Of a DNA stretch of 18,018 nucleotides, positions 11,075 through 17,787 are shown in pieces (positions within the stretch are counted from its first letter, which is position 1; each line of letters opens with the position of its first letter). The position numbers and the translations under genes were made by a program. This DNA is from a virus, in UHGV virus genome UHGV-1603728; one strand, given 5' to 3'. The notes beneath the pieces were generated by a model that saw only the letters and a program-made list of their open reading frames with translations, searched no databases and had not been told where the DNA came from.

Positions 11075-11098
11075 AAAAAAAGGCCCCCGAAGGGGCCT
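11075..11098 (-). terminator. Intrinsic terminator (7-bp GC stem, CGAA loop), effective mainly on the minus strand
   Basis: AGGCCCC-cgaa-GGGGCCU with a run of 7 T on the minus strand, directly downstream of the small hydrophobic ORF. Confidence 0.6.
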
Positions 11099-11103
11099 AA
11101 TCG

Positions 11104-11226
11104 CTACTTGCTGCTAATGTTTATCGTCACATTCAGAGCGTTATCAGTAATCTTCCAACCCTCCCCATGTGGCGTAAACAAAGCTCCAGTAACAACGATA
11201 AAAATACACATGTAGTATTTTTTCAT
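11104..11226 (-). CDS. Small hydrophobic peptide (40 aa), candidate type I toxin
   Basis: MKKYYMCIFIVVTGALFTPHGEGWKITDNALNVTINISSK has one N-terminal hydrophobic helix. It is followed by a terminator and preceded by a long 5' leader containing a 20-nt box complementary to a divergent RNA. Confidence 0.35.
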   Translation of the reverse strand: MKKYYMCIFIVVTGALFTPHGEGWKITDNALNVTINISSK

Positions 11227-11290
11227 TGTGTGGCCCTTACAGGCCGTTTCACGGCATCCCCACCGACGAAAATGTCGCGAGAGCAAGCAC

Positions 11291-11310
11291 GCTGTTTGTG
11301 CCTGCGTGGT
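11291..11310. repeat. 20-nt box copy 1 (GCTGTTTGTGCCTGCGTGGT), in the putative leader of the small-peptide mRNA
   Basis: Identical at 19 of 20 positions to 11541-11560. Confidence 0.6.
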
Positions 11311-11498
11311 ACGGCAAGTGGATAATCCTTTCCTGAAAGTCAGTGCCCGGGTGCGAATCGGCGGAAAGGCCCCAAGCCATATTACACGTCATACCCTTCA
11401 TAATGAAGGAATAAAAAACGCTTTTATTACATAAGATTACACGTAAATAAGTTAAAAACCTTCATTTTGCATGAGCTAATGAGCTAAATTTTTTTATA

Positions 11499-12350: not shown

Positions 12351-12513
12351 TTAGTCTGTTAAAATCCCTCTGTATTGACATGAATGCGCCATTGGTGGAC
12401 ACTTTCCGAGCCGTAGCAAAATCTACGGTCGGGATTAGCCTCCTGAATAACACGATGGCGCATACCGCGTTAGCGGTTTTTTTTATGCGTAGAGCACTGT
12501 TACGCCCAAATTA

Positions 12514-12592
12514 TGGTGGGTCGTACAGGGGCGGAGAAATCCGCGCCGGTTCGTCATTGTGTCCGGTAAGGCTAACCCTGTACGGCTCACCA
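12514..12592 (+). ncRNA. Structured RNA element resembling phage P1 c4 antisense RNA
   Basis: 17-bp closing stem (12514-12530 with 12576-12592) enclosing a GAAA-tetraloop hairpin (12531-12544) and a hairpin with a 13-nt loop (12546-12566). Loop sequences are complementary to flanking target boxes and to the start codon of the downstream small ORF. Confidence 0.4.
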
Positions 12593-12646
12593 CCATTTGA
12601 TTAGCCTCGAATGGCGGTGATAGTTCCATATACTGGAGATATCACA

Positions 12647-12838
12647 ATGACAAACCTACCCCATGACTATTACGTCAACCTCGTAAAGATCCTTCTCAAG
12701 AAAGCCTCATACGCCGATAAATTCCGCCTGGCTGAAATCATCGAGCGCGAAGCTATGCGCATCGCCAGCAACGATAACGCTGTTTCTGACGCAAAAATCT
12801 CCCTCGTAACCAAAGTAGTTATGGGAGGTGCAAAATGA
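12647..12838 (+). CDS. Small protein translationally coupled to the antirepressor (icd-like position)
   Basis: ATG 12647 with SD GGAG 8 nt upstream; its stop overlaps the antirepressor ATG (ATGA). An alternative ATG at 12611 has no SD. Confidence 0.45.
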   Translation: MTNLPHDYYVNLVKILLKKASYADKFRLAEIIEREAMRIASNDNAVSDAKISLVTKVVMGGAK

Positions 12839-14016
12839 AAACGCTTCCGACCGTTAACACCCTACAGCCTATCCTGCATAACCAAATCCCCGTTATCACT
12901 ACTGAACTACTGGCAAAGCTATACGGCACAGACGTTGATAACATCAAAAAAAATTACTCACGTAACGCAAACCGCTTTATTGAAGGAAAGCATTTTTTCA
13001 AAGTGGCTGGCGATGAGTTAAAAACTTTGCGAGTGACTTTAAGTCACTCACAAAATTTGCGACTGGTTTTAAACGAGTCACAAAATGAGGTGCAAATTTC
13101 CCCCAAAACTCGCTCTCTCATCCTCTGGACAGAACGCGGGGCTGCACGTCACGCCAAAATGCTTGAAACTAACCAAGCGTGGGATGTGTTCGAACGGCTG
13201 GAAGACTGCTACTTCAACCAGAACGCGCAAACGGCCGCGACCGTTACCGTCTCGCCAAACAATGCTCGTGAGGTTGTCGATACGCTCAACGCCAAACCGA
13301 TGTTTTACATTAAAGTGTGCAACAACGAGCCACTCACAACCTCAGCCGATGTTGCCCAGGCATTCAGCACCACAAACAATTCCATCGTTATGGCCATCGA
13401 TGCGCTACGCATTCCTCGCACGGCTGCGGCGCGTCACTTCTTTAAAGAGCAACGACCGCTGGAAGGAAGCGACCGCGAAATAACAATCTATCGCATGACA
13501 AAAGACGGATTTACCTTACTCATGGAGAGCATCGACGGTCCAAGCGTGAAAGATATCAAGCTGGCCTACATTGAAGCCTTTAACGCTATCAGCAGCGTGT
13601 TAAAAACACAGTACGAGCGTGATCTGGCTAAACGACTGTACCAGGAAAAAACGATTATCCGCGCGGCAACAGAGCATAATCGGCTATTAACGGAACCGAA
13701 CTACAGGAAGGAACTAATCAAGGAGTTTGACAAGGCAACAGGGAAAACCAAAGCGGCGCTAAATCTGCCAGCAATGACTCAGGAAAATGTGATATCAGCC
13801 TTACTTCTTGATCTGCTCAGAAACGCCAGAGCACTGATCAGCTTTGACGAAAACCTGAATCCTCAGCTCAAGCTACTACCACCGACAGGCAAAGTAGTCG
13901 ACCAGGCAGATCACAACAGCATACTCAGCGTACTGGATGCAAACCTACCAGCCAGGACACTACAGGAACTGATAAAGATATCGGCGGATAAACTGGCCGC
14001 AGGTGCAAAACCATAA
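12835..14016 (+). CDS. Phage antirepressor (ORF6N/KilA-type N-terminal region with Rha-like central domain)
   Basis: N-terminus PVITTELLAKLYGTDVDNIKKNYSRNANRFIEGKHFF is ORF6N-like; the centre PLTTSADVAQAFSTTNNSIVMAIDAL is Rha/Ant-like. 393 aa, SD GGAGG 6 nt upstream. Confidence 0.75.
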   Translation: MKTLPTVNTLQPILHNQIPVITTELLAKLYGTDVDNIKKNYSRNANRFIEGKHFFKVAGDELKTLRVTLSHSQNLRLVLNESQNEVQISPKTRSLILWTERGAARHAKMLETNQAWDVFERLEDCYFNQNAQTAATVTVSPNNAREVVDTLNAKPMFYIKVCNNEPLTTSADVAQAFSTTNNSIVMAIDALRIPRTAAARHFFKEQRPLEGSDREITIYRMTKDGFTLLMESIDGPSVKDIKLAYIEAFNAISSVLKTQYERDLAKRLYQEKTIIRAATEHNRLLTEPNYRKELIKEFDKATGKTKAALNLPAMTQENVISALLLDLLRNARALISFDENLNPQLKLLPPTGKVVDQADHNSILSVLDANLPARTLQELIKISADKLAAGAKP

Positions 14017-14051
14017 AACAAAGCGCCCGATTTGGGCGCTTCTTCAATTCT
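14011..14051. terminator. Bidirectional terminator between convergent genes
   Basis: 7-bp stem AGCGCCC / GGGCGCU (14021-14039) with T-rich flanks on both strands. Confidence 0.55.
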
Positions 14052-14686
14052 TAATATTTCGGTGTAATCAGTAGCGACACGTGCCCTGATTTGTCACGAG
14101 AAACGTAATACTCGCCTCTCTTAGTCTTAAACTCAGCTTTCTGCGTATCAGATTTAACAATCTGCTCTAACTGCGCGATCACTGTGTCTCTATCACTTGA
14201 TGCATCCAAGACTTCAACAGCTACGGCCATAGAAAGCAAGGAATCAGAGCTAGGCTTAGATACTCGCCATAATAACTCTGAAATCTTCCCATCCTTATCA
14301 ACTCTAGCTCGACCGTTAACAGATGAATTGATGGCAAATTCAACGGTGTTGTTACCTTGTTTAACTGACTTAATTCTTATAGTGGAGGTGGATTTTCCTG
14401 ATGTAGCGATACCTTCAAGGTCATCATTATATAGCTGCTTAAACTGATCTACGGTCACGCCATCGAAAGCAGCTCCGGTAGTAGCCGTAGTGCCGGAGTC
14501 TTCTGGAATCAAGGCCACAGCAGCAAGAGTATTAACAACAACAAAAGTAGCAATCCCAAGAAACCCACTCACTAAAACAGCTTTGAACTTACTACCAGAA
14601 GATGGGCCACATTGTTTCCGATATGCACCACGAACTACGAAGAAACACAAAATCAGGCTAATAATAAACGCCACCAGCATCCCCAT
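14051..14686 (-). CDS. Membrane-anchored protein with an extracytoplasmic domain (211 aa)
   Basis: Two N-terminal hydrophobic segments (LVAFIISLILCFFVV, LVSGFLGIATFVVVNTLAAVALI) then a Ser/Thr-rich soluble domain. SD AGGAG 8 nt upstream. Confidence 0.55.
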   Translation of the reverse strand: MGMLVAFIISLILCFFVVRGAYRKQCGPSSGSKFKAVLVSGFLGIATFVVVNTLAAVALIPEDSGTTATTGAAFDGVTVDQFKQLYNDDLEGIATSGKSTSTIRIKSVKQGNNTVEFAINSSVNGRARVDKDGKISELLWRVSKPSSDSLLSMAVAVEVLDASSDRDTVIAQLEQIVKSDTQKAEFKTKRGEYYVSRDKSGHVSLLITPKY

Positions 14687-14748
14687 AGAAATCTCCTTTT
14701 AGATATAAGGGTAAAGCAATATCGTATTGGATCTTCCTTTAGACACAA

Positions 14749-14762
14749 CCCCCCCTCCCCCC
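14749..14762. repeat. Homopolymeric tract C7-T-C6 (G-tract on the minus strand) upstream of the membrane-protein gene
   Basis: ccccccctcccccc at 14749-14762, about 63 bp upstream of the gene start at 14686. Confidence 0.8.
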
Positions 14763-15250
14763 ATACAGGGTGCCCTTTACCGGAGTTCCGGCCCCTTCTC
14801 AAAAGCATCAAAAAAAGCTCGAGATCGAGTACCGGAACTCATGCCACCAGATAGCTCCACATCGTTTCCAATGCTTCGCCGCCGTGTGCGCCCTGTGGCC
14901 CACAATCATGCCATTGGTCGTCTGATATACCTTCTTCTGCTCATTGAGCACAGGCGAGTTGTCGCACTCCTGCCTTTCTCAGACTCGACTTAGTTTAGAT
15001 CGCTGTTCCTGGCTTGCGTCAGCACACTTTCCCCTTGTACGCATACCCGCGCGCCACTTCGCCCAAAAACACCGAACCCAACGAAGTGGCAAAGACAACG
15101 ACGCGAGCGTGAGTCTGAAACAGGCACCAGTAAAAAAGGGGTTGCAGGCGCAAAAAGATTTGATTATCTTTAGACGCAAGAAAGCCGCCCCAATCAAGAG
15201 GTGTCTTTTTAAATCCAGCCTACCAAGCAAGATTTAAATTTCGGATTGAA

Positions 15251-15280
15251 AACCGCCCGGCAAGGCGGTTTTTGTCTTTC
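15251..15280 (+). terminator. Rho-independent terminator (plus-strand orientation; may also serve the minus-strand HTH gene)
   Basis: 7-bp stem AACCGCC / GGCGGUU with loop CGGCAA, then TTTTTGTCTTTC. Confidence 0.55.
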
Positions 15281-15321
15281 TGGCGCTTACATTACACCAC
15301 CATAAAACGATCCGTAAAGGA

Positions 15322-15594
15322 TCATTTGATCCCTTGTTCCAATTCTGACGACACTTTAACCTTTTCCCATACAAGGGTTTGCAGCCTTAACAGAATCGCA
15401 TCTTTATCAAGGTGTGAAAGATCCTTAACCATATCGTCAAACGACAGAACGCGAATGGCCATCTCAATGACCCTCGGCGGCTCCCCCTTCTCATATCGCT
15501 TATATGTAGCCAACGATATCCCAAATTCTTCGGCGGCTCGCTCCTGCGTCCAGTTCATCCCTCGACGCCATAATTTCAATTCATAACCCGTCAT
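15322..15594 (-). CDS. XRE-family HTH protein (90 aa)
   Basis: Start trimmed to MTGYELKLWRRGMNWTQERAAEEFGISLATYKRYEKG (ATG 15594) with SD GAGGAGG upstream. Confidence 0.6.
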   Translation of the reverse strand: MTGYELKLWRRGMNWTQERAAEEFGISLATYKRYEKGEPPRVIEMAIRVLSFDDMVKDLSHLDKDAILLRLQTLVWEKVKVSSELEQGIK

Positions 15595-15622
15595 AGCATC
15601 CTCCTCGCACAATATTAACACT

Positions 15623-15649
15623 CGCAAAGTGTCAAAATGACACTTTGCG
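15623..15649. promoter_or_regulatory. 27-bp perfect palindrome CGCAAAGTGTCA-AAA-TGACACTTTGCG (operator-like)
   Basis: 12-bp perfect inverted arms; contains TTGACA on the minus strand. Lies between the 126-aa gene and the HTH gene. Confidence 0.55.
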
Positions 15650-15659
15650 CACATCGTGT

Positions 15660-16040
15660 TTACTTAACGAGGAATAAAAATGGTTTATTGTTCGGCGGTG
15701 TAATCGGGGCTGGCTCGCTTTTGCTCATGCGATCAGTGTACCAGGCCAGCTCCTTGTCAAAGTAAGCCTGATTAAAATAGGCAATGAATGTAGTTTCAAA
15801 TCCATAACGACCGCTAATACGCAGCATCTGGTTGCCGTTCTCTGTTTCCAGATATACCTGGGCACGTTCCTGATTCTCCTTCAGCCAGGTTAAAGCCTCA
15901 TCGCACGAGGACACACGATACTCATCATCGTAGCCGTCATCGATGCGGCTTGAAGAAGAACGGCAAATCACGCCAACAGAACCAGCCAGGATAGTTTGAA
16001 TTTTAAGGAAAGCGTTTTTGCGGATTTTAATCATGCTCAT
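15660..16040 (-). CDS. Hypothetical protein (126 aa)
   Basis: ORF directly downstream of copy B of the promoter/leader repeat, with SD GGAG upstream. Confidence 0.5.
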   Translation of the reverse strand: MSMIKIRKNAFLKIQTILAGSVGVICRSSSSRIDDGYDDEYRVSSCDEALTWLKENQERAQVYLETENGNQMLRISGRYGFETTFIAYFNQAYFDKELAWYTDRMSKSEPAPITPPNNKPFLFLVK

Positions 16041-16047
16041 CGGGTTA

Positions 16048-16148
16048 TCTCCGGTTTAACCAGGGCGGGTATCGCTCGGTTTCGGGTATAACCATAGGAA
16101 ATTTTTTCCCACCTGTAAAGCACTTTTATATAAATCTATAATTATATA
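16048..16148 (-). repeat. Copy B of the 101/102-bp promoter-leader repeat, ending in a half iteron (S6)
   Basis: About 97% identical to 5945-6046. It carries only the left half of the S2 palindrome. Confidence 0.75.
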
Positions 16149-16161
16149 ATTCAATGAGAAC

Positions 16162-16202: not shown

Positions 16203-16502
16203 TCAGATGTTAAACGCTATTCGTTTTCCTGTGGGAAGCTCAACATCCAGGCTTAATTTGCCTCCCATAGCTTCAACGTAACGCTTTAATGTCGCCAGCT
16301 TTAAATCATTTCCGCGCTGCTCCAGCTTTGTTACTGCTGGCTGGCTTATACCCATCGCCTCAGCAACCTGTTTTTGTGATAACTGGAGTTCTTCACGCAT
16401 CATCTGCAAGCCGACCTCAAGAATCATCTCATCTGCCATTTCTTTAATTCGCGCCTGACTTTCAGGTGAACGGCTGGCAATCACCTCATCTAATGTTCTC
16501 AT
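16203..16502 (-). CDS. HigA-like HTH antitoxin (addiction-module antidote type)
   Basis: 99 aa with an XRE HTH (LSQKQVAEAMGISQPAVTKLEQ), directly downstream of and overlapping (TAATG) the RelE/HigB-like toxin gene. Confidence 0.75.
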   Translation of the reverse strand: MRTLDEVIASRSPESQARIKEMADEMILEVGLQMMREELQLSQKQVAEAMGISQPAVTKLEQRGNDLKLATLKRYVEAMGGKLSLDVELPTGKRIAFNI

Positions 16503-16849
16503 TACTTGCTCTCCAGTGTGTTCAGATGTGCTGCAAACTCATCCTCAGCTATACGCACCAGTTTTTCATAAAACCGTTTATCGTTACTTTTGTCTCCTGC
16601 ACAAAGAACGATGGCCCGGCGAATCGGATCGAACACATAAAAGGCTCTTATCGGACGGCCAGAAAACTGAACGCGAAGCTCTTTCATATTTTTGTACCGA
16701 GAACCTTTTACGGTATCGGCATATGGCCTGGGTAACTCAGGTCCGTAAACCTGTAGCTTTTTCAAATCAGCCAAAACCTTTTCCTGAAGAGCGTCTTCTT
16801 GCTCATTTAGCCAGTCATCAAATCGCTGGCTAAAAAGTACCGTCCACAT
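16502..16849 (-). CDS. RelE/ParE-superfamily HigB-like toxin (addiction-module killer type)
   Basis: About 115 aa, in the toxin-upstream HigBA arrangement. Start trimmed to ATG 16849 (MWTVLFSQRFDDW) with SD AGGA upstream. Confidence 0.7.
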   Translation of the reverse strand: MWTVLFSQRFDDWLNEQEDALQEKVLADLKKLQVYGPELPRPYADTVKGSRYKNMKELRVQFSGRPIRAFYVFDPIRRAIVLCAGDKSNDKRFYEKLVRIAEDEFAAHLNTLESK

Positions 16850-16857
16850 GCTCAATC

Positions 16858-16904: not shown

Positions 16905-17093
16905 ATTTCAAGAAAAACGGGGCTATTTAACATAATGGACGTTATCGGCACCACCGGATCACCGTTCATTGTCGGATCTAAAAAATCCGCTCAAAAGATC
17001 ATGTTTTCCTGGGCGTTTTCCACCGTTTTTTATGTTGCTTATTTGTTAATGAAATCTCGTTTTCAGTTTCGCCTCATTTTCGACGCGAAAGCC

Positions 17094-17357
17094 CTATTTT
17101 TGTGACTTTACTCCTGGCATATGGACTTCCCAGCGACGAATCCCCATAGCTGCGCAAAAATCAGCCACATAATTCAATCCCGCCCATTCGCGGATACCAC
17201 CACGGGCTTTTTCAATGAAAACGGCAATCCCTTTTTTATTGAGAGCAAAAAGCCGCCAGCTTTTTGTCACTTCGTCCTGGGTAGCCACAACACAAGTGAA
17301 AGCTCCCATGCGATACAGGTCCAAGAACTCTTTGCGTGTTTTGCGTACAAGTTCCAT
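17094..17357 (-). CDS. Hypothetical protein (87 aa)
   Basis: ORF with ATG 17357 (MELVRKTRKEF) and SD GAGG upstream, just downstream of the HTH-TM gene. Confidence 0.4.
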   Translation of the reverse strand: MELVRKTRKEFLDLYRMGAFTCVVATQDEVTKSWRLFALNKKGIAVFIEKARGGIREWAGLNYVADFCAAMGIRRWEVHMPGVKSQK

Positions 17358-17380
17358 AACAAACCTCATATTTGCATGTT

Positions 17381-17668
17381 TCAAACATCTGTTTTGTTAT
17401 CAATGAAGATTAACCCTAACCCAGCGAAGTAACACAGCAGCGCCCAGGCTGCATACGGAATGCTGGATCTGGATGTGGACTCCTTTAACATCTGCCAGTT
17501 GCGAACATTGCGACTATCTTTTAAGCCTAGTTTTTTGGCCAACTGCGAGCCACTCATTCCGGTCAGGCCAATGACTGCCCGAACTTCTCCACATGTAGGA
17601 GATTCCCATTCATCCGCTTTTTTTAAACAAGCCGGATTCAACATTTTTAAAACAGTATCTTTATCCAT
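17381..17668 (-). CDS. HTH protein with a C-terminal transmembrane segment
   Basis: HTH-like segment TGMSGSQLAKKLGLKDSRNVRNWQ and hydrophobic C-terminus IPYAAWALLCYFAGLGLIFI. SD GGAG upstream of ATG 17668. Confidence 0.4.
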   Translation of the reverse strand: MDKDTVLKMLNPACLKKADEWESPTCGEVRAVIGLTGMSGSQLAKKLGLKDSRNVRNWQMLKESTSRSSIPYAAWALLCYFAGLGLIFIDNKTDV

Positions 17669-17698
17669 AACCATCTCCATTTATTATATCTACGATGG

Positions 17699-17787
17699 TA
17701 GGAAATCTTTTCCTATGTGGCAATAGAAATTTACTACATTGCGTATAAGACAAGTTTTCTATGTCTAATAGGAAATGATGTTTCTTA
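17699..17787. promoter_or_regulatory. Operator-like palindromes TAGGAAA-N3-TTTCCTA (17699-17715) and TAGGAAA-N5-TTTCTTA (17769-17787)
   Basis: Also an 18-19-nt direct repeat cTATGTgGcAATAGaAAT at 17713-17730 and 17758-17775, directly upstream of the HTH-TM gene. Confidence 0.4.

Follow-up and report, generated by a model that had tools for sequence, protein, structure and literature searches.

A noncoding block resembling a divergent ColE1-type RNA-primed replication origin in a family of 48-kb phage-plasmids

The virus genome UHGV-1603728 was analysed as a single stretch of 18,018 nucleotides (the window). Within it lies a gene-free interval of about 640 bp, bounded by the start of a membrane-protein gene and the stop of a helix-turn-helix (HTH) gene, both on the minus strand. 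A preliminary description of positions 14687–15321, made from the letters alone, had regarded the interval as poor in open reading frames (ORFs), and comparison with relatives agrees: no gene is annotated there in any of them and the lineages differ by several 1-bp indels. The tract, inverted repeats, promoter-like pair and terminator that had been listed separately form one unit, a conserved noncoding block. This block is most likely (probability about 0.72) a divergent ColE1-type RNA-primed (theta) replication origin, carried by a phage-plasmid of ~48 kb that also encodes RepA and ParA.

The carrier of the window is a non-mobilizable tailed phage-plasmid of ~48 kb. Near-identical DNA is present in 62 PLSDB plasmids, mostly from E. 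coli and also from E. fergusonii, E. albertii, Klebsiella aerogenes and Salmonella, as well as in 72 of 5,426 complete E. coli genomes, among them ATCC 25922, where it is a plasmid. In that strain's sequence CP009073.1, the counterpart of 14700–15400 falls at about 17,040–17,700. The Yersinia phages vB_YpM_39/41/44 carry the DNA as well. Relatives encode RepA, ParA, a tail-fibre invertase and tail genes, and the carriers of the block are non-mobilizable phage-plasmids of ~44–52 kb with RepA, ParA and tail genes, or fragments and cointegrates of these. Since the block was found in 62 plasmid records, as against 61 for a distant phage gene of the same family, it is a fixed part of the family and is present in essentially every member. 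A metagenome scan added 14 further copies, all of the E. coli or Salmonella types. Distant relatives of the HTH protein in IMG/VR (L026–L028) are without the block, and an 18-mer scan of genome_contigs for distant relatives yielded nothing beyond chance matches, in unrelated metagenome-assembled genomes. The plasmid pSLy3 was considered as a family member and rejected; it belongs to the SSU5 supergroup of ~100 kb.

The limits of the block were drawn from alignment boundaries. Similarity begins at ~14736, directly after the end of the antirepressor gene in most relatives, and from ~14750 to ~15385 the block is 80–95% identical to a Salmonella relative, whereas the neighbouring protein genes are 57–80% identical. 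At its right end the block covers the last ~60 nt of the HTH gene, beyond which identity falls sharply. Over the last ~20 codons of this gene (15322–15385, minus strand) the DNA is conserved even at third codon positions, as against an identity of only about 65–70% in the remainder. The primer promoter may have an upstream element that extends into the coding sequence, or recombination may have left a boundary inside the gene. The features considered below are the following, with strand and basis given for each.

14736–15385, minus strand: whole conserved noncoding block, the proposed ColE1-type origin region (alignment boundaries, identity to a Salmonella relative)
15289–15318, minus strand: predicted RNAII promoter, with –35 TTTACG at 15318–15313, an 18-nt spacer and –10 TAATGT at 15294–15289 (within the nhmmer match)
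15309–15312, 15320–15323 and 15328–15331, either strand: three GATC (Dam) sites (invariant in all relatives)
14740–15281, minus strand: predicted RNAII-like preprimer of about 505–545 nt (alignment of the body, consensus fold)
15143–15171, plus strand: predicted RNAI promoter, TTGCAG-17-TATCTT (sequence, conservation)
15178–15282, plus strand: predicted antisense RNA of the RNAI kind, about 100 nt long, folding into three stem-loops (fold, position)
15247–15274, either strand: symmetrical GC-rich hairpin that would serve the plus strand as RNAI terminator and the minus strand as first RNAII stem-loop (terminator scan)
15053–15090, minus strand: RNAII hairpin with a hypervariable stem and a conserved 20-nt G/U-rich loop (covariation)
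15016–15042, minus strand: hairpin GCGU-[ACAAGGGGAAAGUGUGCUG]-ACGC with a G-rich loop (within the invariant 50-mer 15003–15052)
14859–14874, minus strand: small RNAII hairpin with compensatory changes (pair table)
14783–14840, minus strand: origin-proximal helix GAGUUCCGG/CCGGAACUC enclosing GCUUUUUUUGAUGCUUUUGAGAAGGGG (perfect 9-nt inverted repeat)
14749–14762, minus strand: primer-RNA tract G6AG7, which reads C7TC6 on the plus (template) strand, beside the predicted RNA-to-DNA switch (alignment)
14736–14780, minus strand: zone predicted to hold the origin, that is the RNase H cut and first deoxynucleotide (two alternative alignments)
14051–14686, minus strand: membrane-protein gene, outside the element (PHROG 23465, function unknown)

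Read on the minus strand, the block resembles the ColE1/pMB1 origin, and the resemblance was tested on real sequences. An nhmmer profile was assembled from nine origins, namely ColE1 and eight other ColE1-type origins that are 73–87% identical to it. In the 18-kb window this profile gave a single significant match, on the minus strand from 15343 to 15249 (E = 3.6e-6), which spans the RNAII promoter with its GTAAT –10 element, the three GATC sites in the spacing of the family, and the first stem-loop. Aligned globally, the block and the origin of ColE1 are collinear all the way from the promoter to the start of DNA synthesis, with a z-score of 7.6, the opposite strand giving only background. 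The alignment is likewise collinear, with a z-score of 13.2, for the 5.6-kb Col plasmid CP077330 (L068), the best match outside the family, which itself matches the ColE1-type profile with E = 1.6e-169. After removal of the promoter and first stem-loop, the remaining body of 506 nt still scored z = 6.8–7.5 against the RNAII bodies of ColE1 and L068; the null for these scores was a set of 214 real segments of the window, and the opposite strand stayed at the level of the null. The landmarks that fall into register are the variable hairpin, the G-rich-loop hairpin and the origin-proximal T-run/G-run motif. Among the matches listed, the DNA matches outside the phage-plasmid family are small plasmids of about 2–14 kb.

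The part of the profile match that aligns best is the hairpin at 15247–15274 (aaaaaccgcct...ggcggttt). About 1,560 plasmid records outside the family match this stretch at E ≤ 1, and those among the matches listed are again ~2–14 kb in size. Upstream of it on the minus strand, the predicted RNAII promoter aligns to the family's ...cttgagatcc...cgtaatct and places the start of the primer near 15281. The GATC sites are separated by 4 nt and 7 nt, which is the spacing of GATCaaagGATCttcttgaGATC in the ColE1-family consensus.

Conserved pairing in the body of the predicted primer is specific to the minus strand. In the consensus fold of the whole block, 9 pairs on the minus strand carry changes on both sides as compared to 0–2 in controls with slid partners, a count that rests on about 18–25 distinct, closely related sequences of two lineages only, the E. 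coli and Salmonella types. Because pairing is conserved in this strand-specific manner, the block is predicted to specify a long structured RNA read from the minus strand in the same direction as the HTH gene.

The clearest case is the hairpin at 15090–15053, whose stem is the most variable spot of the block and whose pairing is kept nonetheless. Read on the minus strand, standard pairs fill 97.8% of cells, and five of the ten pairs carry double-sided changes. For the plus strand the figure drops to 78.9%, because a single-sided change that leaves G.U on the minus strand leaves C.A on the other. The hairpin aligns to the ColE1 hairpin CTTACCGGGTTGGAC...CCGGATAAG. It corresponds to an inverted repeat, GCCACTTCG-N20-CGAAGTGGC, that had been noticed earlier; the repeat is real, and its arms lie at 15053–15061 and 15082–15090, some 6 nt to the right of the 15047–15084 first assigned to it. 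By estimate, about one perfect 9-nt inverted repeat is expected by chance in 800 bp and four were seen, which is unremarkable. The repeats are therefore meaningful because they are conserved and covary, and not by their count.

Downstream on the same strand, the hairpin at 15016–15042 lies in the most conserved 100 nt of the block (95%) and is invariant in all variants. It aligns to the ColE1 segment GGGCTGAACGGGGGGTTCGTGCACACAGCCC, and its loop may be functionally analogous to the G-rich loop of ColE1. In the small hairpin at 14859–14874, the E. coli and Salmonella types differ by compensatory exchanges (A-U to G-C and U-A to C-G). All five of its pairs are intact on the minus strand, and the end pairs of the window copy would be nonstandard on the plus strand (A.C and C.A). 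The origin-proximal helix pairs 14840–14832 with 14791–14783, and the change found in Salmonella, at pair 14839/14784, leaves a G.U on the minus strand only. The motif enclosed by this helix aligns to ATTTTTGTGATGCTCGTCAGGGGGG of ColE1, which at the origin end is matched by GCTTTTTTTGATGCTTTTGAGAAGGGG in the window. The palindrome CCGGA-gt-TCCGG that had been pointed out near this position was located as CCGGAGTTCCGG at 14780–14791 and forms part of the helix. A long-range inverted repeat, 14966–14986/15111–15131, was dropped as it is not preserved in Salmonella.

The plus strand offers the counterpart of an RNAI. A promoter-like pair is present as had been described, with TTGCAG at 15143–15148 and TATCTT at 15166–15171 separated by a 17-nt spacer. 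It is weak, agreeing with the consensus at 7 of 12 positions; neither hexamer varies among the E. coli and Salmonella types, the only differences being at two positions of the spacer. The plus-strand terminator, for its part, consists of the hairpin 15247–15274 followed by TCTTTCTGGC and is one of only two such sites in 14000–15800. Since the hairpin is symmetrical, it can act on both strands. The RNA between promoter and terminator (15178–15282) folds into three stem-loops, as did ColE1 RNAI when folded alongside, and covers the initial ~100 nt of the predicted primer. Conservation is seen in its outer stem-loops; most differences between the E. coli and Salmonella lineages fall in the middle stem-loop and the first loop, the parts by which incompatibility is set in ColE1-type systems. 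The preliminary proposal of one or more small RNAs is supported in part, in that the promoter and terminator delimit an RNA of ~100 nt with the position, length and architecture of ColE1 RNAI; that the features belong to a single ColE1-type origin had been missed.

At the far end of the predicted primer is the interrupted homopolymer. A C7-T-C6 tract lies at exactly 14749–14762, as first reported, with an average of 0.03 matches in shuffled sequences. Read on the minus strand, G6AG7 aligns to a G6 run just upstream of the ColE1-type origin of L068, where it precedes CCTATGGAAAAA at the point where the RNA primer ends. From the work of Masukata and Tomizawa, a G-rich primer RNA on a C-rich template reportedly stabilises a persistent hybrid that RNase H turns into a primer. 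By analogy with ColE1, the tract sits exactly where this persistent-hybrid model would call for a G-rich primer. Two candidate origin sites were obtained from two alternative alignments to CCTATGGAAAAA(C/G) of ColE1 and L068, one between GGUAAAG and GGCACC (~14775) and the other at UUGUGUCUAAAGG (~14740), and the register is ambiguous.

From these features, transcription of the block, processing of a primer and activity of an origin can be predicted as follows. An RNAII-like preprimer would begin near 15281, from the promoter at 15318–15289 just past the stop of the HTH gene with its three Dam sites. As it grows, it would fold into three 5' stem-loops, the variable-stem hairpin at 15090–15053 and the G-rich-loop hairpin at 15042–15016. 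After about 505–545 nt the preprimer would reach its G-rich end (G4, then G6AG7) and stay hybridised to the C7TC6 template. RNase H would then trim the hybrid and DNA polymerase I would extend the primer leftward from about 14736–14780. On the plus strand, TTGCAG-17-TATCTT would drive the antisense RNA of ~100 nt (15178–15282), which would end at the hairpin 15247–15274 and would control copy number and incompatibility through kissing contacts with the primer's 5' stem-loops. What role such an origin may have relative to the RepA replicon is considered at the end of the text.

Several points weigh against an origin of this type. The profile match reported by nhmmer is confined to the promoter and first stem-loop, and the origin-proximal similarity stays below the reporting threshold. 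That similarity is weak and depends on z-scores from global alignments with simple scoring and on two alternative registers. The difference in consensus folding energy between the strands of the preprimer region (RNAalifold, −175.5 kcal/mol on the minus strand versus −116.3 kcal/mol on the plus strand) is partly compositional, the minus strand being G/U-rich, and it is given little weight relative to the counts made pair by pair. A sigma-70 promoter scan of 14000–15800 gave no site and so reported neither the RNAI nor the RNAII promoter, each of which agrees with 7 of 12 consensus positions; this null is uninformative, however, because the RNAII promoter of ColE1 itself is also 7/12 by the authors' count. 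The Rfam model of RNAI (RF00106) did single out the RNAI-like region of the window, but with 18.8 bits (E = 0.67) it stayed below its gathering score of 47, and in the Salmonella relative its scores were weak, 15.4–17.1 bits, and fell on both strands. More broadly, a search of 14687–15321 against Rfam with both gathering and permissive thresholds found no significant family, the best sub-threshold models being Phe_leader and RNAI (E 0.5–0.7).

Other points of this kind concern the carrier and its variants. ColE1-type origins are typically found on small, multicopy and often mobilizable plasmids, and the carriers here are ~44–52 kb and non-mobilizable. Since RepA is already present in them, a second origin is not obviously needed. 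The high identity of the block could in part reflect recent exchange between lineages instead of purifying selection. Finally, two metagenomic copies have internal deletions. One (L049, metagenome Ga0308157_10026280) lacks 50 nt at ~15047–15096, including the whole variable hairpin, and the other (L056) lacks 22 nt at ~14966–14987. The two could represent natural deletions, defective elements or artefacts of assembly, or the deleted parts may be dispensable.

Annotations and published records were also consulted. At the noncoding block, the RefSeq/PGAP (Prokaryotic Genome Annotation Pipeline) annotations of relatives have no feature, and MOB-suite typing lists no replicon cluster for the PLSDB records of the family; both follow from the RNAI score staying below the Rfam threshold. 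A description of a ColE1-like origin was not found in the literature on this phage-plasmid family. When 50,697 phage records were searched by blastn for the ColE1 origin, 11 records matched, none of this family and mostly small or unannotated, resembling vectors or plasmids. Stretches 91–96% identical to the ColE1 origin occur in MZ375336.1 (Salmonella phage seszw) and MT446410.1 (Escherichia virus TH38), which could be due to vector or plasmid contamination, chimeric assembly or genuine capture.

Some of the same observations are what one would see if the block were a relic or a co-opted module, of ColE1-type descent (for example from an old cointegration with a small Col plasmid) and no longer firing. 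It might then persist as a sense/antisense RNA pair with another regulatory role, or through recent acquisition or exchange. The presence of RepA and ParA in the same plasmids, the internal deletions in two copies, the RNAI model below threshold and the weak origin-proximal similarity all favour such a fate. Set against it are the occurrence of the block in essentially all family members, its conservation above that of the surrounding protein genes, the RNAII helices kept by compensatory changes, and a promoter, GATC spacing and G-rich elements that are invariant across the E. coli and Salmonella lineages. On balance, a silent module is considered unlikely.

The idea of independent small RNAs or long untranslated regions unrelated to replication, as in the preliminary description, calls for a trans-acting small RNA ending at 15247–15274, together with a 3' untranslated region of the HTH operon or a 5' leader of the membrane-protein gene. 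In its favour, an RNA of ~100 nt is bounded by a promoter-like pair and a terminator, and the block follows the HTH gene on the same strand, no terminator separating the two. Still, such an arrangement leaves unexplained the end-to-end collinearity with ColE1-type origins on one strand, the membrane-protein gene is absent from most relatives while the block is kept, and no small RNA family of Rfam matches. Independent RNAs of this kind are judged very unlikely.

A third alternative was that slipped-strand variation of the C7TC6 tract tunes the promoter of the membrane-protein gene, acting as a phase-variable switch on its spacing or strength. The tract is a long interrupted homopolymer about 60–75 nt upstream of the start of that gene, and rare +/−1 variants do occur. 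Its length is almost invariant, however. Across relatives, C7TC6 was found in 21 of the 25 distinct copies that cover the tract. A 70-mer containing it is identical in 49 of the 72 E. coli genomes and most of the other records keep the 70-nt length, those examined at full length differing by substitution. In the ATCC 25922 lineage C8 arises from an A-to-C substitution with the length unchanged. The variant records examined include two with an insertion elsewhere in the 70-mer, two with a +/−1 change in tract length, and one from a low-quality assembly. The variants of the tract itself are one C6 and one C8 by insertion, the latter in one of three assemblies of a single strain, and the one remaining length variant stems from an assembly in which homopolymer errors are obvious. 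The tract is moreover preserved in many relatives that lack the membrane-protein gene. A switch of this kind has scarcely any likelihood, and this part of the preliminary description was not borne out, failing as it does on the refuting condition that the description itself had set.

A decayed minus-strand gene is just as improbable: the negative GC skew resembles that of neighbouring minus-strand genes and the interval has several ORFs of 40–97 amino acids, yet a protein gene is ruled out because the lineages differ by 1-bp indels and none of these ORFs is conserved among relatives, substitutions had no three-base periodicity by eye in one alignment, and a decaying gene would not exceed its intact neighbours in conservation.

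Taking the block as a ColE1-type origin, its likeness to ColE1/pMB1 extends to the order of the parts and the logic of the strands. Both have an RNAII promoter rich in Dam sites, and three 5' stem-loops beneath an antisense RNA of ~100 nt that ends in a GC hairpin and U-run. In each case the preprimer is structured, is ~500 nt long and contains a G-rich loop, and a T-run/G-run motif comes ahead of the switch from RNA to DNA. In ColE1, the distances to the origin are 445 from the RNAI start and 555 from the RNAII start; the corresponding distances here are about 400–440 nt and about 505–545 nt. There are differences as well. The block is very divergent and is not among the best 5000 matches listed in a blastn search from ColE1. 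It resides in a 48-kb non-mobilizable phage-plasmid with RepA and ParA, as opposed to a small multicopy mobilizable plasmid, and its G-run reads G6AG7 where ColE1 has G6. Near the block there was no sign of a rom/rop gene, nor of any conserved sequence downstream of the predicted origin.

Phage P1 provides another comparison. It uses oriR with RepA in the plasmid state and oriL with RepL for lytic growth, the second origin lying near the C4-ant immunity/antirepressor region. The family described here similarly combines a RepA-type plasmid replicon with a separate second origin, in this case predicted, near a C4, isrK and ant arrangement. The second origin of P1 needs RepL, whereas the one predicted here would be RNA-primed and depend on host enzymes. 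A nearly identical interrupted G tract is present in the nascent RNA of mitochondrial conserved sequence block II (CSB II), with C7TC5-6 on the other strand, where transcription becomes DNA priming. The polymerases and the organism are different and no homology is implied; the likeness is one of form only and serves as a lead. A further parallel is offered by the extrachromosomal prophages of mycobacteriophages, which use RNA-based origins and are mostly without repA, as described by Wetzel et al. (2020, PMC7157519). As in the phage-plasmids, a temperate phage is kept as a plasmid, and in the prophages an RNA-based system rather than a Rep protein starts replication. The hosts in that account are Actinobacteria and most of the prophages lack repA, whereas the phage-plasmid family has it, and the two are likened by description.

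The membrane-protein gene next to the block is missing from most relatives, with a breakpoint at ~14736. As most relatives are without the gene and similarity starts at that point, it is the gene that was inserted, as a moron, and the noncoding block that is constant. Following the direction of RNAII transcription, the moron comes directly after the predicted origin, so its expression might be helped by primer RNA that reads through. The moron junction is flanked by a direct repeat of 18 nt, imperfect, at 14691–14708 and 14731–14748.

The window also encodes lysis genes, a CI-like repressor, a primase-like gene, an antirepressor controlled by C4/isrK and a HigBA-like pair. The pair consists of a Gp49/HigB-like toxin gene and an HTH antitoxin gene (a type II toxin-antitoxin system) at 16203–16855 on the minus strand, between the origin block and repA. 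The isrK RNA (65.7 bits) is directly followed by the C4 antisense RNA (70.8 bits) at 12410–12597 on the plus strand, 5' of a small ORF and an ORF6N/Rha antirepressor (12835–14016), an arrangement that amounts to a P1/P7-style RNA-controlled antirepressor module. A full-length match to the ryfA RNA (Rfam RF00126; 135 bits, E = 4.9e-35) was identified at 11076–11374 on the minus strand. It sits between the partition genes and the immunity region of the phage-plasmid; in enterobacteria, the ryfA locus is presumably a type I toxin-antitoxin system (timP/timR). A second conserved island at ~16000–16150, with 85–90% identity to the Salmonella relative and flanks of 57–70%, lies in the AT-rich gap upstream of a 126-amino-acid gene and the HTH operon; it could represent a promoter/operator or a further RNA. 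Three copies from IMG/VR and metagenomes (L012, L020 and L046) have an insertion of ~570 bp relative to the window, placed by blast coordinates near ~15603–15612, a short way upstream of the start of the HTH gene.

As for the role of the origin beside the RepA replicon, a wider reading may be put forward tentatively and is more doubtful than probable. In this reading, a tailed temperate phage has its own protein-independent ColE1-type origin next to a RepA replicon, for establishment or lytic amplification, along with an exclusion code in the RNAI loops and a CSB II-like tract. An incoming genome would replicate on host enzymes alone, either to become established or for lytic amplification, and amplification might take place when read-through from the HTH operon overrides RNAI. 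The lineage-specific RNAI loops would constitute a code for incompatibility or superinfection exclusion between related phage-plasmids. G6AG7 would be a bacterial counterpart of the R-loop/G-quadruplex signal for primer formation in mitochondrial CSB II.

The element would be new as a very divergent ColE1-type replicon in an unusual carrier, adjacent to a RepA replicon, and it goes unseen by the standard tools consulted: the predicted second replicon escapes PGAP annotation, the Rfam RNAI threshold and the MOB-suite typing of PLSDB. The compact, divergent and probably orthogonal RNAI/RNAII pair may also be of use in plasmid engineering. The phage-plasmid family is common, includes a resident of the quality-control strain ATCC 25922, and extends to Salmonella, Klebsiella and phages infecting Yersinia. 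If the origin is active, the copy number of these phage-plasmids, their incompatibility with small Col plasmids or sibling phage-plasmids, and their establishment after infection would have to be rethought, and the family would represent a natural case of ColE1-type priming in a virus.

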